64,000 nucleotides of DNA from an uncultured Chitinophaga sp. (GCA_964456225.1 CAYWAV010000001.1:100179-164178), one strand, 5' to 3'. Positions 11,382 through 57,708 are shown, counted from the stretch's first letter. Translations and numbers: made by a program. The notes: generated from the letters alone by a model not told the origin.

Positions 11382-11675
11382 GTGAGGGTAATTTCAAAAA
11401 AAATACTTAGAGAGTTTTGGGAAAAACATTCAGATAGTCAGCAGCAACTGAAGTCTTGGTTTCAGGAGACTAGTAAAGTGAGTTGGAAGTCGCCTAAAGA
11501 AATTAAAAAAGAGTATCCAAGTGCTAGTTTTTTAGAAAACAATCGAGTAGTTTTTAATATAAAAGGAAATAAGTATCGCTTGATTGTAAGAATCAGCTAT
11601 GATTATCAGATGGTTTGGGTTCGATTTGTTGGAACTCATGCAGAATATGATAAGATTGATGCAACTAAAATTTAA
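11382..11675 (+). CDS. higB: Type II toxin HigB (mRNA interferase)
   Basis: 97 aa. MRVISKKILREFWEKH...GNKYRLIVRISY...VWVRFVGTHAEYDKI is the typical HigB-toxin family pattern. GTG start. Confidence 0.85.
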   Translation: MRVISKKILREFWEKHSDSQQQLKSWFQETSKVSWKSPKEIKKEYPSASFLENNRVVFNIKGNKYRLIVRISYDYQMVWVRFVGTHAEYDKIDATKI

Positions 11676-11679
11676 AGAG

Positions 11680-12039
11680 ATGACAATAAAACCAATTAAA
11701 ACAAAAAAGGATTATCAAAATGCCCTTGAAAGACTTGAATTGATATTTGATTCAAAGAAAGGTTCAGTTGCAGGTGATGAGTTGGAAATCTTAGGTATCT
11801 TAATTGAAAAATATGAAGACGAGCATTTCCCTATTGGTTTTCCTGATCCTATTGAAGCTATTAAATTCAGAATGGAACAAATGGGTTATACTCAAACGGA
11901 TTTAGCTAGAGTAGTTGGACTAAAAAGTCGCGCAAGCGAAATTTTGAATAAGAAAAGGAAATTGACTTTGGAAATGATTCGATTATTACATGATAATTTA
12001 AAAATTCCTACCGAGGTACTTATTCAATCCTATAAATAA
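11680..12039 (+). CDS. higA: Type II antitoxin HigA (XRE-type HTH)
   Basis: The ATG at 11680 lies 4 nt after the higB stop. MTIKPIKTKKDYQNALERLELIF plus a C-terminal HTH (YTQTDLARVVGLKSRASEILNKKRKLT). The track start at 11599 overlaps higB and is rejected. Confidence 0.85.
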   Translation: MTIKPIKTKKDYQNALERLELIFDSKKGSVAGDELEILGILIEKYEDEHFPIGFPDPIEAIKFRMEQMGYTQTDLARVVGLKSRASEILNKKRKLTLEMIRLLHDNLKIPTEVLIQSYK

Positions 12040-12222: not shown

Positions 12223-12669
12223 TTATTTTTTCATCATACGTCTGATAAGCCATAAAACAATAAATCCTACTGGAACAAGAAAAGCCCACAAAGGATAGGC
12301 TGTTACTATAGTATTGAAACTAAAATCTTCTGTAAAAATGCTTAGGTTTTTGCTTGTATCAAATTTTTGAATAAAACTTGCTTGTCCATCCACAAATTCT
12401 AATTCTTTGTCTTTACCATTAATGATAAAACTAATTCTGCCTTTATTTAACTGTAATTTGGTATGATTAGGATTAACAAATCGTAATTTAACTTCGGCCT
12501 CTTTGAATGTGAATATTATAGAGGGCAAAGTAACTTCAATATCGCTATTTGTAATACGATCAATTACTACAGAATTATCTACAACCTCTACCTCTTCACC
12601 TGGAATTTCTTTGGCAAATGTAGAGACAAACGTTAAAATGAAAGTAATCGCAAACAGTACTTTTTTCAT
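12223..12669 (-). CDS. Hypothetical protein with signal peptide and C-terminal TM anchor
   Basis: 148 aa with a hydrophobic N-terminus and the C-terminal helix WAFLVPVGFIVLWLI followed by RRMMKK. Confidence 0.55.
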   Translation of the reverse strand: MKKVLFAITFILTFVSTFAKEIPGEEVEVVDNSVVIDRITNSDIEVTLPSIIFTFKEAEVKLRFVNPNHTKLQLNKGRISFIINGKDKELEFVDGQASFIQKFDTSKNLSIFTEDFSFNTIVTAYPLWAFLVPVGFIVLWLIRRMMKK

Positions 12670-12768: not shown

Positions 12769-12808
12769 AAAAAATAAGGCCCGATCCGATATTCATCGAA
12801 ACAGGCCT
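12769..12808 (-). terminator. Candidate terminator of the small ORF
   Basis: On the minus strand, aggcctgtttcgat...atcggatcgggcct is an imperfect hairpin followed by tatttttt. Confidence 0.4.
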
Positions 12809-12833: not shown

Positions 12834-12986
12834 TTAATCGATTAGTTTGGCATCCGGATATTTTTCCTGCCAAGCTTTTAATGCACCCTCTGTCCGAACC
12901 GTAATGGTAGTTCTAGTATCAATTTGTAATTTGAATTTAGGGCGATTATCGATAACTTCTTTTTTGATTTTCATTGTCTTGCTCAT
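12834..12986 (-). CDS. Unannotated 50-aa small protein, paralog of 27888..28046
   Basis: ATG..TAA ORF encoding MSKTMKIKKEVIDNRPKFKLQIDTRTTITVRTEGALKAWQEKYPDAKLID. Aligns without gaps to the second copy, with synonymous differences at conserved residues. Confidence 0.65.
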   Translation of the reverse strand: MSKTMKIKKEVIDNRPKFKLQIDTRTTITVRTEGALKAWQEKYPDAKLID

Positions 12987-13120
12987 TTTGTTGCTTATTA
13001 AGGTGTTCGTGATTCTTACGAAATCATTTCTTTATTGATTATCCATAACATACAACACAATATCTCTGCCAATTGTTTTATACTTAACATATTTTAACAA
13101 CGAGGATTTGTTTCCTTTCG

Positions 13121-13252
13121 CTTCGACTCCGCTCAGTGTGACAGTTGGTGAGCAGCTTATTGTTAAACTTAATAGTGTGTTGTTGTCACACTGAGTACTT
13201 CGACTCCGCTCGAAATGAATTTAGAACTGTCATTTCGAGCGGAGTCGAAAAA
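13121..13252. repeat. Composite REP-A element forming two hairpins at the clpB 3' end
   Basis: A 12-bp inverted repeat pairs 13132-13143 with 13184-13195. A perfect 20-bp inverted repeat pairs 13199-13218 with 13230-13249 around an 11-nt loop. The element starts 7 nt past the clpB stop. Confidence 0.85.
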
Positions 13253-13258
13253 CGCTAA

Positions 13259-15895
13259 TTATTCACTAACAGTTTTTTTTATTTTCTTCTTATCCTCATC
13301 AATAGGGTTTCTGAAAACAAACTCTTTGTTGAACACATCCAATACAATGTTGGCATCTTTTTCAACTTTCCCTGCCAATATCTGTTTAGAAAGCTCATTC
13401 AATACTCGTTTTTGGATTACCCTTTTTACCGGTCGGGCTCCAAATTGAGGGTCGAAGCCCAATTGTGCCAACCAATCTATTGCTTCAGCTGTTGCAGTGA
13501 TATGAATATCGTTTTCTTCCAGCATTTTAGCAATGCCTATGAACTGTAATTCAACTATTTGATGCACATTTTCTCTGGTTAATGGAGTAAACATGATGGT
13601 TTCATCTATTCTGTTTAAAAATTCAGGACGAATTGATTTTTTTAGCAATTCAAAAACTTCGACTTTTGTTTTTGCTATGATCTCATCTCTGTTCCGTTCT
13701 GTCAATTTTTCGAAATTTTCTTGTATCAAATGAGAGCCCATGTTTGACGTCATAATGATGATGGTATTTTTAAAATTTACCATGCGTCCTTTATTATCAG
13801 TCAATCGCCCATCATCTAAAACTTGTAGCAAAACATTGAATACATCGGGATGTGCTTTTTCAATTTCATCCAGTAAAACAACACTGTATGGTTTTCTGCG
13901 TACTGCTTCTGTTAATTGTCCGCCTTCTTCGTATCCCACATATCCCGGAGGTGCACCAACCAATCTACTCACAGCATGACGCTCTTGGTATTCACTCATG
14001 TCAATACGAGTCATACTATTTTCATTGTTGAATAAGAATTCTGCCAATGCTTTTGCTAACTCGGTTTTACCAACACCTGTAGTTCCCAAGAAAATGAAAG
14101 ATCCAATGGGTCGCTTGTTGTCTTGTAATCCGGCACGACTTCTTCTCACAGCATCGCTGATGGCTTCAATCGCTTCTTCTTGACCTACCACACGTTTATG
14201 CAATTCATCTTCTAGATGTAAAAGTTTTTCGCGTTCACTTTGTAACATTCGTGAAACTGGAATGCCGGTCCACACAGCAATTACTTCTGCAATATCTTCG
14301 CTTCCAACTTCCTCTTTAATCATTTGTGAGCCGTTTTGTTGCATTTCTGCTAATTTGCTTTCAAACGATTTTAATTGAACTTCGGCTTCTTTAATTTTTC
14401 CGTAACGTATTTCAGCAACTTTGCCATAATCACCATTACGTTCTGCCTGGTCAGCTTCAAATTTGAAGTTCTCGATTTGTTCTTTTACTTTTTGAATGCC
14501 TTCAACTACTTCTTTCTCACCTTGCCATTTAGCACGCAAATCACTTCTTTTATCAGATAATTCTGCAATTTCTTTGTGAAGTTCTTCTAGTTTTTTAGTA
14601 TTCTTTTCGCGTTTGATTGCTTCGCGTTCAATTTCAAGCTGACGGATTTTGCGTTCTACTTCATCCAATTCTATTGGCATAGAGTTAATCTGCATTCTAA
14701 GTTTAGAAGCCGCTTCATCCATTAAGTCGATTGCCTTATCTGGTAAAAAACGATCGTTGATGTATCGTTGTGATAATTCAACAGCAGCAATAATTGCTTC
14801 GTCTTTGATACGCACTTTGTGATGCGTTTCATATTTTTCTTTTATTCCGCGTAAAATAGAGATAGCATCTTCTGCATTTGGTTCATCCACCATTACTTTT
14901 TGGAAACGTCTTTCGAGTGCTTTGTCTTTTTCAAAATATTTTTGAAACTCATTTAAAGTGGTTGCACCAATTGCACGTAATTCTCCACGAGCCAAGGCCG
15001 GTTTTAAAATATTGGCAGCATCCATAGCGCCTTCGCCACCACCGGCACCAACAAGTGTATGGATTTCATCAATGAATAAAATAATTTCTCCTTCTGCGGA
15101 AATAACTTCTTTCACCACCGATTTTAAACGTTCTTCAAATTCACCTTTAAATTTTGCTCCGGCAATGAGTGAGCCCATATCCAAAGAAAAAATTTGTTTT
15201 GATTTTAAATTGTCAGGAACATCTCCGTTGATGATGCGATGTGCCAATCCTTCTGCAATAGCAGTTTTACCAACACCTGGTTCACCAACTAAAATCGGAT
15301 TGTTTTTTGTTCTACGTGATAAAATTTGCAACACTCTGCGAATTTCCTCATCACGCCCAATCACAGGATCTAGCTTTCCTTTTTTTGCTTGCTCATTTAA
15401 ATTGATGGCAAATTTATTCAAGGCATTGTAAGTATCTTCTGCTGTTTGACTGTTTACTTTAGCGCCTTTACGCAGTTCTGTAATTGCAGCTTTTAAATCT
15501 TTTTCAGTTACTCCATTGTCTTTCAACAATTGTGAAACGTTGTCTTTTGTAGAAAGCAAAGCCAACAACAAGTGTTCGATAGAAACAAATTCGTCACCAA
15601 ATTCTTTTAGGTAGTTAGCTGCTTTTGAAATTACCTGATTGGCAGTATTAGATAAAAATGGCTGTCCACCCGAAACTTTCGGATACCCTTCAATCATTTT
15701 GTCTAAGGCCTTTGTAAACATTGCAGTATTTACATTTAGCTTCTTTAGAATAAAAGGGGTTACGTTTTCGTCCACTTCTAAAATTCCTTTAAAAAGGTGT
15801 CCGTTTTCAATAGATTGCTGCCCATTGGCAGTTGCAATTTGTACTGCTTGTTGAACAGCCTCTTGCGATTTTATGGTATAGTTATTTAAGTTCAT
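13259..15895 (-). CDS. clpB: ATP-dependent chaperone/disaggregase ClpB
   Basis: 878 aa. Clp N-domain, two AAA+ modules ([16 protein letters not shown]) and a long coiled-coil middle domain. Confidence 0.97.
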
Positions 15896-16077
15896 AGTTT
15901 TAAATTTTGCATGAAATAAAGGTCAAATAGTAGTCCAACATTTAAAATGACAATTGTTAGGACTAATTGGCTGACTACTTTGATTTTAAATGACTTTATG
16001 GCTTATTAAAGCATTCGTCTCTGCCTATTTTACAGACCAATTTTTTTTAATATATTGCAGGATATTTAACAAGCTTC

Positions 16078-26435: not shown

Positions 26436-26720
26436 CTATTCATACAAGCTTAATCTATTCTTCAGTCGAATAATTTCTGTTTGTAGGTCTTCATTCTTTT
26501 TCAAAAGATGAACAACAGCTTCAATTCCTTCCATGTTAATGTCCATTTCATTGTATAGTCGCAGAAGGCGTTCCAGTTTTTGTAGTTCATTCGAATCTAT
26601 GAAGAGCACTTCTTCTAGGGTGGTTAATTCAATCAAACCAAATTCCTTTAGGGAACTGATAAAAGAAATTTCAATCTGATGATTGATGCAAAATTCATTT
26701 GCAGATACTAAATTTTCCAT
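26436..26720 (-). CDS. cbpM: Chaperone modulatory protein CbpM-like (MerR-like fold)
   Basis: 94 aa, placed 4 nt downstream of the cbpA-like gene, with the size and pattern of CbpM. Confidence 0.7.
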   Translation of the reverse strand: MENLVSANEFCINHQIEISFISSLKEFGLIELTTLEEVLFIDSNELQKLERLLRLYNEMDINMEGIEAVVHLLKKNEDLQTEIIRLKNRLSLYE

Positions 26721-26724
26721 AGCT

Positions 26725-27612
26725 CTATGATTTAGATAATTCGGTAAATAGTTCTTTTTGTTTGTCGGTTAAATTCGTAGGGATTTTAATAGAGTAGGTA
26801 ATGTATAAATCTCCAAATTGTGCTTCTTGCTTATAAATGGGAAAGCCTTTTCCTTTCAACTTTACTTTTGTTCCTTGTTGTGTTTCTGGATTGACTTTCA
26901 GTTTTACTTTACTATCAAGGGTGTCAATCGTAATTTCGCCACCCAAAACGGCTTGATATAAATCTAAATCAATAGTCGCGTAAAGATTGTTTCCTTCTCG
27001 TTTAAATTTAGAATTGTTAGTAATTGAAAAGGAAATGTACAAATCTCCGTTAGGGCCGCCATTTGCACCTGGGCTTCCATGACCTGAAATTTTAATAGTT
27101 TGTCCATTTTCTACTCCAGCAGGAATAGTTATGCGAATATTTTTCCCATTTACGGCAAGCGTCTGTTGATGTGTTTTAAATGCATCGGTTAAATTAAGTT
27201 GCAGTTCGGCATTAAAATCTTGCCCACGAAATTTTGTTTGCCGTCCTCCTCTTGAACCATTTCCACCACCAAACATGGAGCTGAAAAATTGGGAGAAATC
27301 TTCTTCATTTGCTCCTTCTTGATAATTTCGACCGGCATAATTACCTTGCTGACTTTGTGCTTTTTGAGCCTTTTCGTATTCCTCACCATGCTTCCACTCT
27401 TTTCCATACTTGTCGTATTTTTTACGATTTTCTGGATCACTCAATACTTCATTGGCTTCATTAATCTGTTGAAAAATTTTATTGGCTTCTTTATCATTCG
27501 GATTAAGGTCAGGATGATGTTTGCGCGCTAATTTTCGATAAGCTTTTTTAATATCCTCAGCAGTGGCATTCTTCGCAAGGCCTAAAATTTTGTAGTAATC
27601 AATAAACTCCAT
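26725..27612 (-). CDS. cbpA: J-domain curved-DNA-binding co-chaperone CbpA/DnaJ-like (no zinc-finger domain)
   Basis: 295 aa. J domain (DYYKILG...HPDLNP), G/F-rich linker and C-terminal DnaJ substrate-binding domains. No CxxCxGxG repeats. Confidence 0.85.
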
Positions 27613-27887
27613 TGTGTCAATTTTGTTTAAAGTTACCTTATTAAGTAAAGCAAGGTCATGATTTCAATCAGTAAAAAATATTTTCTACAATTCGTATTGA
27701 GTAATTTGTCAAATTAATGCGGCTGTGGATTAACTAGCCTATATAATTTCATCTTTTTATTGGAATGCTACACTTTTTACAAAAGGGACATCTTTATTAA
27801 TATGTGAACTATGTAATGTTTTTATAAAAATGTATAACACTTCACCAGCTGAATAGTTTGACATTTGTTTAACAAAATGAGCACGAT

Positions 27888-28046
27888 ATGAAACAGAAAA
27901 TAAAAAAGCTGGAATATGTAAAAAGCACTACAGCCAAATTGATTAAGGTGCAATTGGATTATAGAACTGTAATTTCAATATCCAATATAGAAAAGTTGAA
28001 AGCATGGTTACCCCGATATCCTGAAGCAAAAGTGATTACTGCTTAA
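27888..28046 (+). CDS. Unannotated 52-aa small protein, paralog of 12834..12986
   Basis: ATG..TAA ORF encoding MKQKIKKLEYVKSTTAKLIKVQLDYRTVISISNIEKLKAWLPRYPEAKVITA. Shares Q-[IL]-D-x-R-T-x-I ... LKAW..[KR]YP[DE]AK[LV]I with the other copy. Confidence 0.65.
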   Translation: MKQKIKKLEYVKSTTAKLIKVQLDYRTVISISNIEKLKAWLPRYPEAKVITA

Positions 28047-28164
28047 TAATACCGATAGGGCAGTTGTAATAGTATGATTTCAACAGCCTAAAACAATTGC
28101 GGCATTGGCATTACTCAGAAGCATATTAGTATAATTTATCCCAAATTATTCATTAGAAAAGCTA

Positions 28165-28314
28165 ATGAATAATCGATGTAAGAAAATCAATCCTTTCGTG
28201 GCACAAAAAACTGCACCCGAAAGGTTATTTTGTAAATCGGGATTAATCCACCTAATGCAAGCAGCGCAACAAGTTCATTGCCTTCTATGCATAAGTTGGG
28301 TTTATAATAGATAA
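28165..28314 (+). CDS. Possible 49-aa Cys-containing small ORF (weak)
   Basis: ATG..TAA ORF encoding MNNRCKKINPFVAQKTAPERLFCKSGLIHLMQAAQQVHCLLCISWVYNR. Its ATG lies inside a 9-bp inverted repeat (attcattag/ctaatgaat), so an RNA structure is an alternative reading. Confidence 0.25.
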   Translation: MNNRCKKINPFVAQKTAPERLFCKSGLIHLMQAAQQVHCLLCISWVYNR

Positions 28315-28329
28315 TTGTAAAACAATCCT

Positions 28330-28494
28330 ATGAAACAACAAGCACCAGAAATATTAAGAGAAACAGATGTACTTGGTTTAGAAAAACCAAAAAATCAAAC
28401 AAAACCGAGGAATAGAAAAAGCAATGCCGGGTTTTTAATTTTGACCTTGATACTTTTAATGGCAATTGCAGCTGCATCTTATTACTTTAAATAA
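28330..28494 (+). CDS. Possible 54-aa tail-anchored small membrane protein
   Basis: MKQQAPEILRETDVLGLEKPKNQTKPRNRKSNAGFLILTLILLMAIAAASYYFK has a basic stretch followed by one clear TM helix. Same strand as the two preceding small ORFs. Confidence 0.4.
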   Translation: MKQQAPEILRETDVLGLEKPKNQTKPRNRKSNAGFLILTLILLMAIAAASYYFK

Positions 28495-33064: not shown

Positions 33065-33415
33065 TTACAGGATATCTTTATCTTGTTTGCTATTTACAAA
33101 CTGTTTTATATAAAAATACGCGACACAAATCATTCCTGCTACAAAAGGTATTCCGGCATAATATTTCAATTCTTCATGTGTTGCAAATTCACAAATCATC
33201 CAATAGGAGTTCGCTAAAATCCAAAAGGAAATAGCCAGATTAATCCAAAATTCATCATCCTTTTCTTTCCACGTTTTATATGTAATCATAAGTGCAACAG
33301 ACACCGTTGGAACTATCATTATTATTCCTGAAATTTTCCATTGAAGCATCCAACAGGTATCTTTTAATAACCACAATGGGATGTGCAAGTTTTCGTAGTG
33401 GCGAACTTTTCTCAT
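33065..33415 (-). CDS. Hypothetical small membrane protein
   Basis: 116 aa with 3-4 hydrophobic helices. Convergent with ribH, with 1 nt between the stop codons. Confidence 0.5.
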   Translation of the reverse strand: MRKVRHYENLHIPLWLLKDTCWMLQWKISGIIMIVPTVSVALMITYKTWKEKDDEFWINLAISFWILANSYWMICEFATHEELKYYAGIPFVAGMICVAYFYIKQFVNSKQDKDIL

Positions 33416-33540
33416 ACAACAAATGTATAAAATCTATTGATGACTGGCATGTGTAGTGTATTTACTGCAAAAAGACCTATATAGAAGCCAATTTGGAAGG
33501 AATATGTTGGTTTTTGTTTTGTGGTAGGAAATCTTTTTTT

Positions 33541-33548
33541 TACATTTG
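33541..33548 (+). promoter_or_regulatory. -7 box TACATTTG with TTTG at -33 spacing (tRNA-Ser promoter)
   Basis: TTTG at 33518-33521, a 19-nt spacer, then TACATTTG. The tRNA starts 23 nt downstream. Confidence 0.55.
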
Positions 33549-33570
33549 CATTCCTTTGAAAAAAGGAAAA

Positions 33571-33657
33571 GGAGAGATGCCTGAGTGGCCGAAAGGAACA
33601 GTTTGCTAAACTGTCGTACGGGAAACTGTACCGAGGGTTCGAATCCCTCTCTCTCCG
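33571..33657 (+). tRNA. tRNA-Ser (anticodon GCU)
   Basis: 87 nt. Acceptor GGAGAGA/TCTCTCC, anticodon loop TTGCTAA, long variable arm and T-arm GAGGG-TTCGAAT-CCCTC. Confidence 0.93.
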
Positions 33658-33675
33658 CTGACGAATGAAACAAGA

Positions 33676-33706
33676 TCCCGCTTTTCGCGGGACTTTTCTT
33701 TTTTCC
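33676..33706 (+). terminator. Terminator after tRNA-Ser
   Basis: tcccgc-ttttc-gcggga followed by cttttctttttt. Confidence 0.75.
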
Positions 33707-33927
33707 TGGAAAGACCAGAAAGCGATTTCAGCTTTCATGGGTTTGCCGGGGAATAAGAAAACAGCATTGTGAAGCAAGGCTTTGTTTCATTTTTCAAATG
33801 GGAGTCCAGGGACCAGCGAAGCTAACCCGAAAGTCTGCCCAATAAAATGCATTAGAACATAATCTCAAGCCTTTTTTGATTAATTTAGACACTATAAAAT
33901 AAATAAAATGAAAAGCACTAAAAAAAA

Positions 33928-34494
33928 TTGTCATCGGAACAACGCGCAGAACTGCTTAAAACATTAGAGATTCGTTTTGAGAAAAACATGAATCGCCATA
34001 AAGGTATTGAATGGGTAAAAGTATATGCGAAATTGGAAAAGAATGAGGAAAAGCTATGGTCACTATATGAAATGGAAACAACAGGTGGTGAGCCGGATGT
34101 TGTTAGTTTTGCTAGTAAAGGCGGGAGCCAAACAGCAGGCAGTAAGGAATATATTTTTATTGATTGCTCAGCAGAAACCCCTAAAGACAGGAGAAGTATT
34201 TGTTATGACCACCAAGCACTAGAAGCAAGAAAAGAACACAAACCTAAAAACAGTGCTATTGAAATGGCTACAGACATGGGTGTTGAAATCTTAACTGAAG
34301 AACAATACCGCGATTTGCAGAAGCTGGAAAAATTTGATACTAAAACCTCGAGTTGGGTGAAAACACCTGCTGATATTAGAAAACTTGGAGGTGCGATTTT
34401 TTGCGATTATAGATATGGTACTGTCTTTACCTATCACAATGGTGCAGAATCTTACTATGCAGGAAGGGCTTTTCGTGGTTTGTTGAAAGTATAA
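33928..34494 (+). CDS. DUF4256 domain protein
   Basis: 188 aa. ...RFEKNMNRHKGIEW...LWSLYEMETTGGEPDVV... is the typical DUF4256 pattern. TTG start immediately after an A8 run, with an out-of-frame ATG at 33908. Confidence 0.75.
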   Translation: MSSEQRAELLKTLEIRFEKNMNRHKGIEWVKVYAKLEKNEEKLWSLYEMETTGGEPDVVSFASKGGSQTAGSKEYIFIDCSAETPKDRRSICYDHQALEARKEHKPKNSAIEMATDMGVEILTEEQYRDLQKLEKFDTKTSSWVKTPADIRKLGGAIFCDYRYGTVFTYHNGAESYYAGRAFRGLLKV

Positions 34495-34637
34495 TTTTTT
34501 GAAGGTTTATACAATAAGCATCTCTGTAATTCACTAAAATGTGTAGTTCTCTGTTTTTGGGCTTTCGTTGGTAGAAGAAAAGTCTGAATCGAATAGCAAA
34601 AAAATCTTTTTTTTGTTTGCAGGAATAAAAATAATGG

Positions 34638-34645
34638 TACATTTG
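34638..34645 (+). promoter_or_regulatory. -7 box TACATTTG with TTTG at -33 spacing (tRNA-Pro promoter)
   Basis: TTTG at 34616-34619, an 18-nt spacer, then TACATTTG. The tRNA starts 32 nt downstream. Confidence 0.55.
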
Positions 34646-34676
34646 CATCCGCTTAAATAGTTCTTTTATAATAGTT

Positions 34677-34750
34677 CGGGGCGTAGCGTAGTTGGTTATC
34701 GCGCCTGGTTTGGGACCAGGAGGTCGCAAGTTCGAGTCTTGCCGCCCCGA
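34677..34750 (+). tRNA. tRNA-Pro (anticodon UGG)
   Basis: 74 nt. Acceptor CGGGGCG/CGCCCCG, anticodon stem CCTGG/CCAGG with loop TTTGGGA, and T-arm GCAAG-TTCGAGT-CTTGC. Confidence 0.92.
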
Positions 34751-34830
34751 CAAAATAGATGGTTAATGGTTATTTGTTATATCTTACTTATAGCATATTT
34801 ATCGTTAACCTTTTTTTTTCTTCAAAAATT

Positions 34831-34904
34831 GACCCCATAGCTCAGCTGGATAGAGCAACGGTTTTCTAAACCGTAGGCCTTTGGTTCGAATCCAAATGGG
34901 GTCA
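34831..34904 (+). tRNA. tRNA-Arg (anticodon UCU)
   Basis: 74 nt. Acceptor GACCCCA/TGGGGTC, D-arm GCTC-AGCTGGATA-GAGC, anticodon loop TTTCTAA and T-arm TTTGG-TTCGAAT-CCAAA. Confidence 0.92.
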
Positions 34905-56566: not shown

Positions 56567-57553
56567 CTATGGTACTTCAACCGTATTTAAAATTTCATTG
56601 ATAATCATTTCAGAAGTAATGTTTTCTGCTTCTGCTTCATAAGTTAATCCGATACGGTGACGCAAAACATCATTGCAGATTGCACGAACGTCTTCAGGAA
56701 TTACATAACCTCTACGTTTAATAAATGCATAAGCTTTTGCAGCCATTGCCAAGTTGATACTCGCACGGGGAGAACCACCAAAACTGATTAGTCCGGCAAA
56801 TTTGTCCAATTTATATTCTGAAGGGAATCGGGTAGCAAAAACAATATCGACAATGTATCGCTCAATTTTTTCATCCATGTAAACATCTTTCACAACTTTG
56901 CGAGCTGTTAAAATATCTTCCGGTTTTAAAATTTGACTTACGCTGGGATATTCATTCGCCAAATTGTAATGAATGATTTTTCGCTCATCTTCTTTTGTAG
57001 GATAGCCAATAACAACCTTTAACATAAAACGATCCACTTGTGCCTCTGGTAATGGATAAGTTCCTTCTTGTTCAACAGGATTTTGAGTTGCTAAAACTAA
57101 AAACGGATTGGGGAGTTTAAATGTTTGTTCGCCAATGGTTACTTGTTTCTCTTGCATGGCCTCTAACAAAGCACTTTGCACTTTTGCCGGAGCACGATTG
57201 ATCTCATCGGCTAAAATAAAGTTGGCGAAAATGGGTCCTTTTTTTACAGAAAATTCTTCTTTTTTCTGACTGTATATCATTGTTCCTACTAAATCGGCTG
57301 GAAGCAAGTCTGGCGTAAACTGAATACGGTTAAAATCAGCATCAATACAACTTGCTAAAGATTTTATAGCTAAGGTTTTTGCTAATCCGGGCACACCTTC
57401 TAAAAGAATGTGGCCGTTTGATAGAAGTCCAATCAATAAGCGTTCAACCATGTGTTTTTGTCCTACAATTACTTTGTCCATTTCCATGGTTAGCAAGTCA
57501 ACAAAGGCACTTTCTTTCTGAATGCGCTCGTTTAATTCTTTAATATCAGTCAT
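56567..57553 (-). CDS. moxR: MoxR-family AAA+ ATPase
   Basis: 328 aa. Walker A GVPGLAKT, Walker B ILADEINRA, ATQNP sensor and a C-terminal AAA lid. Confidence 0.92.
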   Translation of the reverse strand: MTDIKELNERIQKESAFVDLLTMEMDKVIVGQKHMVERLLIGLLSNGHILLEGVPGLAKTLAIKSLASCIDADFNRIQFTPDLLPADLVGTMIYSQKKEEFSVKKGPIFANFILADEINRAPAKVQSALLEAMQEKQVTIGEQTFKLPNPFLVLATQNPVEQEGTYPLPEAQVDRFMLKVVIGYPTKEDERKIIHYNLANEYPSVSQILKPEDILTARKVVKDVYMDEKIERYIVDIVFATRFPSEYKLDKFAGLISFGGSPRASINLAMAAKAYAFIKRRGYVIPEDVRAICNDVLRHRIGLTYEAEAENITSEMIINEILNTVEVP

Positions 57554-57681
57554 TTGTTTGATTTTTTTAGTCCCGGATGAAAGGGATTGTTTAGCATTTT
57601 TAGTCGTGGCAAAATTAACACAAACCTACGCTAATAGCTGATTAGGGCTGTTAAAAATTGTTAAAGCAAATAGGTTGTTTC

Positions 57682-57708
57682 ATGTCATTTCAAGCAGAGT
57701 TGAGAAAC
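57682..57708 (+). repeat. Degenerate REP-A copy
   Basis: atgtcatttcaagcagagttgagaaac compared with ctgtcatttcgagcggagtcgaaaaac at 13228. Confidence 0.6.

Follow-up and report, generated by a model that had tools for sequence, protein, structure and literature searches.

Two hidden short open reading frames (ORFs), here called copy 1 and copy 2, lie about 15 kb apart in a 64,000-nucleotide stretch of DNA from an uncultured Chitinophaga sp. (GCA_964456225.1 CAYWAV010000001.1:100179-164178; hereafter, the window). The original prediction, made from the window alone, held that the two are gapless paralogs of a family it did not recognise, each next to a chaperone gene, and suggested from this double adjacency a link to proteostasis. 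The genes in question are the following (coordinates are those of the window; aa, amino acids).

12834..12986 (-): copy 1, coding sequence of 50 aa counted from the first ATG; translation MSKTMKIKKEVIDNRPKFKLQIDTRTTITVRTEGALKAWQEKYPDAKLID
27888..28046 (+): copy 2, coding sequence of 52 aa, paralog of copy 1; translation MKQKIKKLEYVKSTTAKLIKVQLDYRTVISISNIEKLKAWLPRYPEAKVITA
13259..15895 (-): ClpB, with domains Clp_N, AAA, AAA_lid_9, AAA_2 and ClpB_D2-small; upstream gene of the putative clpB-copy 1 unit
26725..27612 (-): CbpA-type protein, with domains DnaJ and DnaJ_C
26436..26720 (-): CbpM-type protein, with domain MerR_2

Both translations agree with those originally quoted, and the domain annotation of the window confirmed that clpB lies directly upstream of copy 1 on the same strand and that the DnaJ/DnaJ_C and MerR_2 genes (cbpA-cbpM) adjoin copy 2. 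BLASTP aligns the two peptides without gaps, with 15/32 identities and 22/32 positives (E 3e-10). When each was compared by tblastn with the whole window, its sole match was the other copy (E 6e-7 and 1e-6) and the next best hit had an E value of at least 0.43, so the window holds exactly two copies, and the match between them stands far above chance. Over the 96 aligned nucleotides (nt) the DNA is 53% identical (the proteins being 47% identical and 69% similar) and the differences fall 14/10/21 at codon positions 1/2/3, which argues for conservation of a protein rather than of a DNA repeat, as had been proposed. The start codon conserved among the orthologs of copy 1 is the counterpart of its second ATG (12974), which gives a 46-aa product, MKIKKEVIDNRPKFKLQIDTRTTITVRTEGALKAWQEKYPDAKLID.

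Homologs proved to be numerous. Word-indexed searches returned 33 close relatives for copy 1 and 11 for copy 2. A profile built from the two subfamilies was run against 1.84 billion representative proteins; at a cut-off of E ≤ 0.001 it gathered a family of 241 clusters at 50% identity, nearly all of 40-75 aa. A typical member has about 45-55 residues, namely a variable Lys/Arg-rich N-terminal tail followed by a 33-residue core, for which 92 diverse members give the consensus IKVQLDxRTxITxxxxxALKxWxxRYPxAKxI (T, W and P invariant; K, D and A near-invariant). Four members (P0102, P0112, P0213 and P0214) carry a Lys/Ala/Pro-rich, histone H1-like N-terminal extension of 120-150 residues. Another extension, reading "MLxxQxLAxMLxYIN" in some database entries, was rejected as translated conserved upstream DNA; the window has a stop in that frame. 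Members are labelled "hypothetical protein" by NCBI (e.g. WP_175437465.1 from Crocinitomix algicola), and no exact match to copy 1 was found in the protein collection searched.

A scan of 185,579 species genomes (one genome per species, limited to two peptide patterns) produced 72 loci, 68 of them real and all from Bacteroidota (uncultured Bacteroidia, Crocinitomicaceae and Flavobacteriales). The remaining four (L068, L069, L071 and L072) were false positives, a non-ribosomal peptide synthetase and an unrelated enzyme with a W-x-x-R-Y-P-like string. The same scan did not find the family in the well-studied Bacteroidota genera. Across the 21 copy 1 orthologs (those of L001-L020 and the window) pairwise differences amount to 1875/1297/4699 at codon positions 1/2/3; the mean proportion of synonymous differences (pS) is 0.72 (saturated), that of nonsynonymous differences (pN) 0.16, their ratio 0.22, and the median ratio of nonsynonymous to synonymous substitution rates (dN/dS) 0.11. 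The copy 2 reading frame is likewise kept in seven other contigs. Overall, the family is restricted to Bacteroidota, undescribed and certainly coding, and it is almost beyond doubt that copy 1 and copy 2 are real genes and true paralogs.

The loci fall into several genomic contexts.

Group a, copy 1 type (L001-L020): ClpB gene immediately upstream, same strand
Group b, Crocinitomix (L021-L030): mostly after a gene for an 850-aa sortilin-like type IX secretion system protein
Group c (L031-L046, 15 of 16 loci): after a DUF520/YajQ gene and convergent with an RmlD-like gene
Group d, high-GC Flavobacteriales (L050-L070): often convergent with a GH3-family gene
Copy 2 type (L056, L073-L085): 54-aa membrane ORF downstream (L073, L074, L081-L085)

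The association with clpB is a constant feature of the copy 1 type: in all 21 genomes of the clade (L001-L020 and the window) clpB stands immediately upstream of the small ORF on the same strand, while the genes on both outer sides of the pair vary from genome to genome. The main sequence features of this locus in the window are as follows.

12769..12808 (-): intrinsic terminator after copy 1, hairpin AGGCCTGTTTCGAT..ATCGGATCGGGCCT (-18.3 kcal/mol) and then a T run; first terminator downstream of clpB
13047..13102 (-): conserved non-coding element of the clpB/copy 1 spacer, TGTTAAAATATGTTAAG-N5-AACAATTGGCAGAGATATTGTGTTGTAT, in a longer form TGTTAAAATATGTTAAG-N5-AACAATTGG-N6-ATTGTGTTATA
13057..13071 (-): σ54-like -24/-12 box TGGCAG-AGATA-TTGT (GG and TTG kept, with a variable spacer between them, the two-part conservation of a σ54 promoter)
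13084..13099 (-): direct repeat TGTTAA-N4-TGTTAA forming part of the conserved element, invariant in orthologs; candidate regulator site
15921..16005 (-): clpB promoter module of 85 nt, with a σ54-like box TGGACT-ACTAT-TTGA at 15923..15937, 42 nt before the ATG

The gap between clpB and the small ORF measures 75-180 nt in the orthologs and 285 nt in the window. It has no intrinsic terminator in 17 of the 21 loci, and the small ORF is followed in 19 of the 21 by a hairpin of -7 to -27 kcal/mol with a T run, 55-75 nt past the stop. The sequence thus displays the usual marks of an operon (same strand, short gap, no terminator between the genes, a terminator after the distal one, and conservation of the arrangement). 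Since clpB lacks a terminator of its own and the first one comes after copy 1, read-through into copy 1 is the simplest reading, and by this sequence evidence the two genes are probably co-transcribed. A more distant family member, L047, lies 1.6 kb from clpB.

The spacer itself holds a second layer of conservation. The 55-nt element occurs once in each of the 21 loci (nhmmer E 1e-9 to 4e-16) despite saturated synonymous sites, and was found only before copy 1 orthologs. Against Rfam nothing reached gathering score, and relaxing the cut-off to E 10 brought in noise only; RNAalifold predicted 0 pairs, and single-sequence folds were not consistently more stable than shuffles. A seemingly compensatory hairpin upstream of copy 1 (AACAAT/ATTGT vs CAACATT/AATGTTG) was rejected, as its register shifts, RNAalifold gives it no pairs and many instances are no better than shuffles. 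The element is a DNA-level signal, not a structured RNA.

With TGGCAC-N5-TTGC at a suitable upstream distance as the σ54 reference, the pattern TGG-N8-TTG is seen in 16 of 20 copy 1 orthologs, 43-65 nt ahead of the conserved ATG apart from one outlier at 145 nt, as compared with 6.6% of random 200-nt windows. The clpB promoter module is kept in 17 loci, where it also holds AAGTCATTTAAAATCAA and CAGACAATTCGTCC, and a TGGA[AC][TC]-N5-TTGA box is present in 10/10 aligned intergenic regions upstream of clpB. Each locus has a single module, always in front of clpB or of the gene upstream of it; this latter, a 138-143-aa gene of unknown function, stands between module and clpB in six genomes. The idea that the clpB and copy 1 promoters share one element was rejected, module and 55-nt element each being confined to its own gene. 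Among intergenic TGG-N8-TTG-type matches in the window, only those of clpB and copy 1 are correctly placed before a real gene. A third, at 33808 (-), was discarded: the 108-codon ORF that it precedes (33412..33738, -) is spurious and overlaps a tRNA (33571..33657, +), one of three at 33571..34904. Group d independently has a comparable box: 12 of its 18 loci carry [TC]GGCAC-N4-6-[CT][CT]GC at a distance of 40-56 nt from the ATG. Upstream of the GGCAC box, several loci of this group have a palindrome, GGGGAA-N3-5-TTCCCC, which where located stands about 125-160 nt before the ATG, as an enhancer-binding-protein site would.

To our knowledge, Bacteroidota have no σ32. In Flavobacterium psychrophilum mapped σ54 promoters precede groES-groEL, lon, dnaK, grpE-dnaJ, htpG, skp and clpB (PMC9723704), and a comparative study of Bacteroidota finds an enrichment of σ54 promoters ahead of genes for chaperones, Clp and Lon (PMC12316311). 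The parallel with this quality-control regulon (SM4; PMC9723704, PMC12316311) is that copy 1 follows clpB, a mapped member, and that copy 1 and group d carry a GG-N10-G, -24/-12-like box 40-65 nt before the start, as does the clpB of the clade. On the other hand, no family member is in the published list and F. psychrophilum appears to be without the family; the -12 part in the copy 1 clade is TTGT or TTGA rather than TTGC, and two subfamilies have σA-type promoters. Judged from these motifs, the case that the copy 1 and high-GC Flavobacteriales subfamilies belong to a σ54/stress regulon is evenly balanced.

The surroundings of copy 2 are of a different kind, and they include these features.

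27803..27817 (+): repeat-like element TGTGAA-CTA-TGTAAT upstream of copy 2, conserved in seven other contigs of the copy 2 subfamily
27860..27867 (+): σA-type -7 box of copy 2, GACATTTG (conserved nnnnTTTG), 20 nt before the ATG; no σ54-like box
28330..28494 (+): 54-aa ORF MKQQAPEILRETDVLGLEKPKNQTKPRNRKSNAGFLILTLILLMAIAAASYYFK, with a C-terminal transmembrane helix and no Pfam family; conserved downstream partner of copy 2-type genes

The -7 consensus of σA-type promoters in Bacteroidota is TAnnTTTG (PMC9723704). The 54-aa ORF follows the copy 2-type gene after 8-13 nt in L073, L074, L081-L083 and L084-L085 (four other lineages) and after 283 nt in the species of the window. This 283-nt insertion (28047..28329), seen in this species only, carries a 9-bp inverted repeat, ATTCATTAG..CTAATGAAT. 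Contigs with an identical copy 2 protein, which are of the same species as the window, have cbpM-cbpA in place. Contigs with a 70-87% identical protein keep the same flanks (genes for Band_7, a 375-aa zinc-ribbon protein, an M28 peptidase, DciA and RecF), and cbpA-cbpM was not found beside the copy 2-type genes of L073, L074, L081-L085 and L056, the locus being without it in all five of the other contig groups. Since cbpM-cbpA is present only in the window's species and absent from relatives with the same flanks, it reflects a lineage-specific gain or loss. The adjacency of copy 2 to cbpA-cbpM is incidental. By its sequence features, copy 2 is a diverged paralog with a σA-type promoter, and its conserved partner is the 54-aa membrane ORF.

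A tally of neighbours extends this result beyond copy 2. Among 136 proteins encoded within two genes of 47 loci from the four context groups other than that with clpB, the 25 commonest Pfam families include no HSP70, DnaJ, GrpE, Cpn60, HSP20, HSP90, Clp or Lon. No match to CbpA/DnaJ was obtained in any of the 72 scan loci, and ClpB was confined to L001-L020 and, at a distance of 1.6 kb, L047. There is thus no enrichment of clpB, dnaK, dnaJ or cbpA neighbours across lineages, and chaperone adjacency is not a property of the family. Nor do the two adjacencies of the window count as two independent observations, given that cbpA-cbpM is absent beside copy 2 in relatives. The proteostasis link drawn from them is partly borne out for copy 1 (the clpB pair in 21/21 genomes, the terminators, the σ54-like box) and is not supported for copy 2 and the wider family.

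Repeats of the TGTTAA type occur elsewhere as well. A similar repeat, TGTTAAAGATTGTTAA, precedes the small ORF of L047, and a generalised repeat pattern has 4 matches in the window vs 0.54 expected, although this pattern was defined after both sites were known. A second exact TGTTAA-N4-TGTTAA lies at 57649..57664 (+), between a MoxR-like ATPase gene (56567..57553, -) and truA (from 57735, +), with a canonical -7 box, TTACATTTG, downstream; by our estimate about 0.05 exact repeats are expected by chance. A terminator hairpin and a SurA/PpiD-like gene adjoin the conserved sequence TGTTAAATTTTGTTAAGC at L004:7317, L005:11813 and L009:11942; at two of these sites no same-strand gene comes after it. 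Response regulators of the OmpR family typically bind direct repeats with a period of 10 bp. One regulator of this family, RprY, binds the clpB, groES and dnaK promoters in Porphyromonas gingivalis (PMC3646045).

Some further observations concern the flanks of copy 1.

12223..12669 (-): orf148, with a signal peptide and a C-terminal transmembrane helix, no Pfam match; downstream of the copy 1 terminator
13103..13258 (-): two inverted repeats resembling repetitive extragenic palindromes or miniature inverted-repeat transposable elements, TTCGACTCCGCTCGAAATGA..TCATTTCGAGCGGAGTCGAA and CTCAGTGTGACA..TGTCACACTGAG, between the clpB stop and the conserved element
11382..12039 (+): HigB-toxin gene followed by an HTH_3 (HigA-like) gene, a toxin-antitoxin pair

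A gene like orf148 follows copy 1 in 15 of 20 loci; a similarity between orf148 and the 54-aa membrane ORF downstream of copy 2 was considered and rejected, as none was seen. The inverted repeats at 13103..13258 are missing in most orthologs (only L008 shares the first), and a related sequence is present near 57695.

The small protein itself resembles nothing described, and the original view of the family as an unrecognised one stands. Even at a cut-off of E 10 neither copy hit a Pfam or NCBIfam family, PHROGs returned nothing beyond noise for five subfamily representatives (E ≥ 0.02), and the long forms P0102 and P0112 also matched no Pfam family. Two AlphaFold runs (on 26 and 92 sequences) produced the same β-β-α-β core with a predicted local distance difference test score (pLDDT) of about 83-90, the basic tail being disordered. 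A Foldseek comparison of both models with the PDB found nothing significant (best E 2.1-2.6), and a fold search of BFVD returned one borderline candidate, the unnamed 55-aa protein A0A6J5PI75 (E 7e-3). No relative was found in IMG/VR viral contigs, and tblastn against 50,697 phage records gave noise only.

The sole match of a PDB profile search was a fragment of BvgS, LDGRTVALVRNSAAIPLLQRRYPQAKVV (E 0.003-0.005), from Venus-flytrap domain 2 (PDB 3mpk/3mpl/4q0c), which aligns with LDxRTxITxxxxxALKxWxxRYPxAKVI of the family and has the same strand-helix-strand pattern. Periplasmic binding proteins, however, have a two-lobed fold of about 220 residues, as opposed to the 33 core residues of the family, which in addition has no Pfam SBP_bac_3 match. 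Since among the many such proteins in the PDB only BvgS matches, the resemblance is most likely due to chance or convergence. There is also some likeness to the SpoVT/AbrB swapped-hairpin domains (similar size, β-β-α-β order and an arginine in the first hairpin); unlike these, the family lacks the fifth strand needed for the swapped-hairpin barrel and has no PF04014 or Foldseek match. A type II antitoxin of the AbrB kind found no support either, as no toxin is paired with any family member among the neighbours listed and there is no Pfam match (the ParE gene at L081 has a 69-aa partner of its own). A lineage-specific ribosomal protein, such as the extra protein of the Flavobacterium johnsoniae ribosome, was rejected for want of a matching PDB chain. 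Overall, no described family or fold matches, and these comparisons yield no new mechanism.

The likeliest role of copy 1 is that of a small basic protein of a stress regulon, a reading that, taken as a whole, we favour only tentatively. In the clade of the window copy 1 would be the distal gene of the clpB transcription unit and would have an additional promoter of its own of the σ54 (-24/-12) type, like clpB in the same genomes. Since σ54 promoters in Flavobacteriia drive quality-control genes including clpB, copy 1 would most likely be co-expressed with ClpB when the cell meets proteotoxic or envelope stress; the σ54-type promoter and the co-transcription with clpB would together place it in the protein quality-control regulon. 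The proteostasis idea thus appears to have grounds other, and better, than the double adjacency, for some subfamilies only.

As for its action, our guess is that the protein probably works by binding rather than by catalysis, through a surface made of the basic tail and the polar face of the β-hairpin, along the first hairpin of which the residues of K-x-Q-x-D-x-R-T alternate. Counted from the sequence, copy 1 has a net charge of +4 and copy 2 one of +8, and the Lys/Ala/Pro-rich N-terminal extensions of about 120-150 residues in P0102 and P0112 speak for binding. Among possible ligands we favour nucleic acid or ribosomes, by analogy, although such binding is doubtful. Hsp15 (HslR) of E. coli is a small basic heat-shock protein (133 aa, with an S4 domain) that binds nucleic acid and 50S subunits. 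Copy 1 would resemble it in being small, basic and produced with the chaperone machinery, and Hsp15 provides a precedent for a nucleic-acid-binding, non-chaperone member of a heat-shock regulon; as the two share no kinship of sequence or fold, the analogy extends to a possible mode of action only. We regard as rather unlikely the bolder version, in which the family is an unseen component of the Bacteroidota proteotoxic-stress response, made with ClpB and acting with or alongside it. Under stress such a component might shield ribosomes or nucleic acids or else adjust disaggregation, its paralogs having been re-wired to other promoters and a membrane partner.

Several facts weigh against the stress-regulon reading. 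The clpB adjacency amounts to one evolutionary event in one clade, with ClpB proteins 89-95% identical to that of the window, and the Crocinitomicaceae genes for proteins with 50-57% identity to copy 1 lie away from clpB. The box of copy 1 ends in TTGT or TTGA, never in the canonical TTGC, 4 of 20 orthologs lack the pattern, and the spacing of the group d box varies by ±1 nt. The Crocinitomix and copy 2 subfamilies have σA-type -7 boxes (TAnnTTTG) and no σ54-like box. As regards the binding surface, the invariant aspartate is atypical of one that binds nucleic acid. Finally, the σ54 regulon of F. psychrophilum also holds gliding-motility genes and exported proteins, so that membership would not prove a role in proteostasis.

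Other explanations have to be set against this evidence. The housekeeping one, in which a constitutive nucleic-acid-binding protein of the ribosome or nucleoid has no tie to stress and its position after clpB is a historical accident, we consider unlikely. It would account for the basic tail and the Lys/Ala/Pro-rich fusions, the strong purifying selection, the σA-type promoters of two subfamilies, and the stable vertical synteny of each subfamily with unrelated neighbours (DUF520/YajQ, RmlD, GH3, Sua5, CvfB). It fits poorly with the lack of a sequence match to ribosomal or nucleoid protein chains in the PDB, with the conservation of σ54-like boxes in two subfamilies, and with the absence of the family from the well-studied Bacteroidota genera in the two-pattern scan of 185,579 species genomes. 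Quite unlikely, in our view, is a dedicated chaperone cofactor, an adaptor or regulator in direct contact with ClpB or with J-domain proteins such as CbpA, which is what the double adjacency of the original prediction implied. The conserved clpB-copy 1 unit, the diverged member kept 1.6 kb from clpB at L047 and the cbpA-cbpM genes next to copy 2 in the window all point towards it, but cbpA-cbpM is absent at L073, L074, L081-L085 and L056 despite the same outer flanks, and the 25 commonest Pfam families among the 136 neighbours of 47 loci include no chaperone, Clp or Lon.

The repeats raise the further alternative of a small transcription regulator that binds TGTTAA-N4-TGTTAA-type sites before its own gene and its paralog and so controls itself. 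Repeat-like elements are indeed conserved before copy 1, copy 2 and the small ORF of L047, and there is the excess of matches in the window (4 vs 0.54 expected, for a pattern defined post hoc). A protein with one helix and no recognisable DNA-binding motif, which neither Foldseek nor hidden Markov model searches relate to a DNA-binding family, makes this very unlikely; moreover, the same repeat stands without a same-strand gene after it at L004 and L009, and direct repeats of 10-bp period are more typical of OmpR-family regulators such as RprY (PMC3646045). That the ORFs are not genes but fortuitous reading frames, or what is left of a DNA repeat, could be argued from their shortness and from the exact copy 1 sequence being missing from the protein collection. 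The probability of this is negligible, and it is already refuted by the size of the family (241 clusters, members of which NCBI already calls as genes) and by the codon evidence, i.e. frame conservation, a dN/dS of 0.11, and 53% DNA identity vs a protein 47% identical and 69% similar.

No part of bacterial genomes is charted less well than their small proteins, and the heat-shock system of Bacteroidota, driven by σ54 and without σ32, is poorly understood. The analysis provides a well-defined family (241 clusters, invariant residues T, W and P) whose mini-fold is predicted with confidence, an operon position behind clpB and a candidate promoter and regulator site, both conserved, and a cultured carrier, Crocinitomix algicola (WP_175437465.1); together these make the part played by the family under stress directly testable. 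The outcome is a new small-protein family tied to clpB in one clade, not a demonstrated mechanism. It also carries a lesson of method, since for one of the two copies the adjacency observed in just one genome was misleading.

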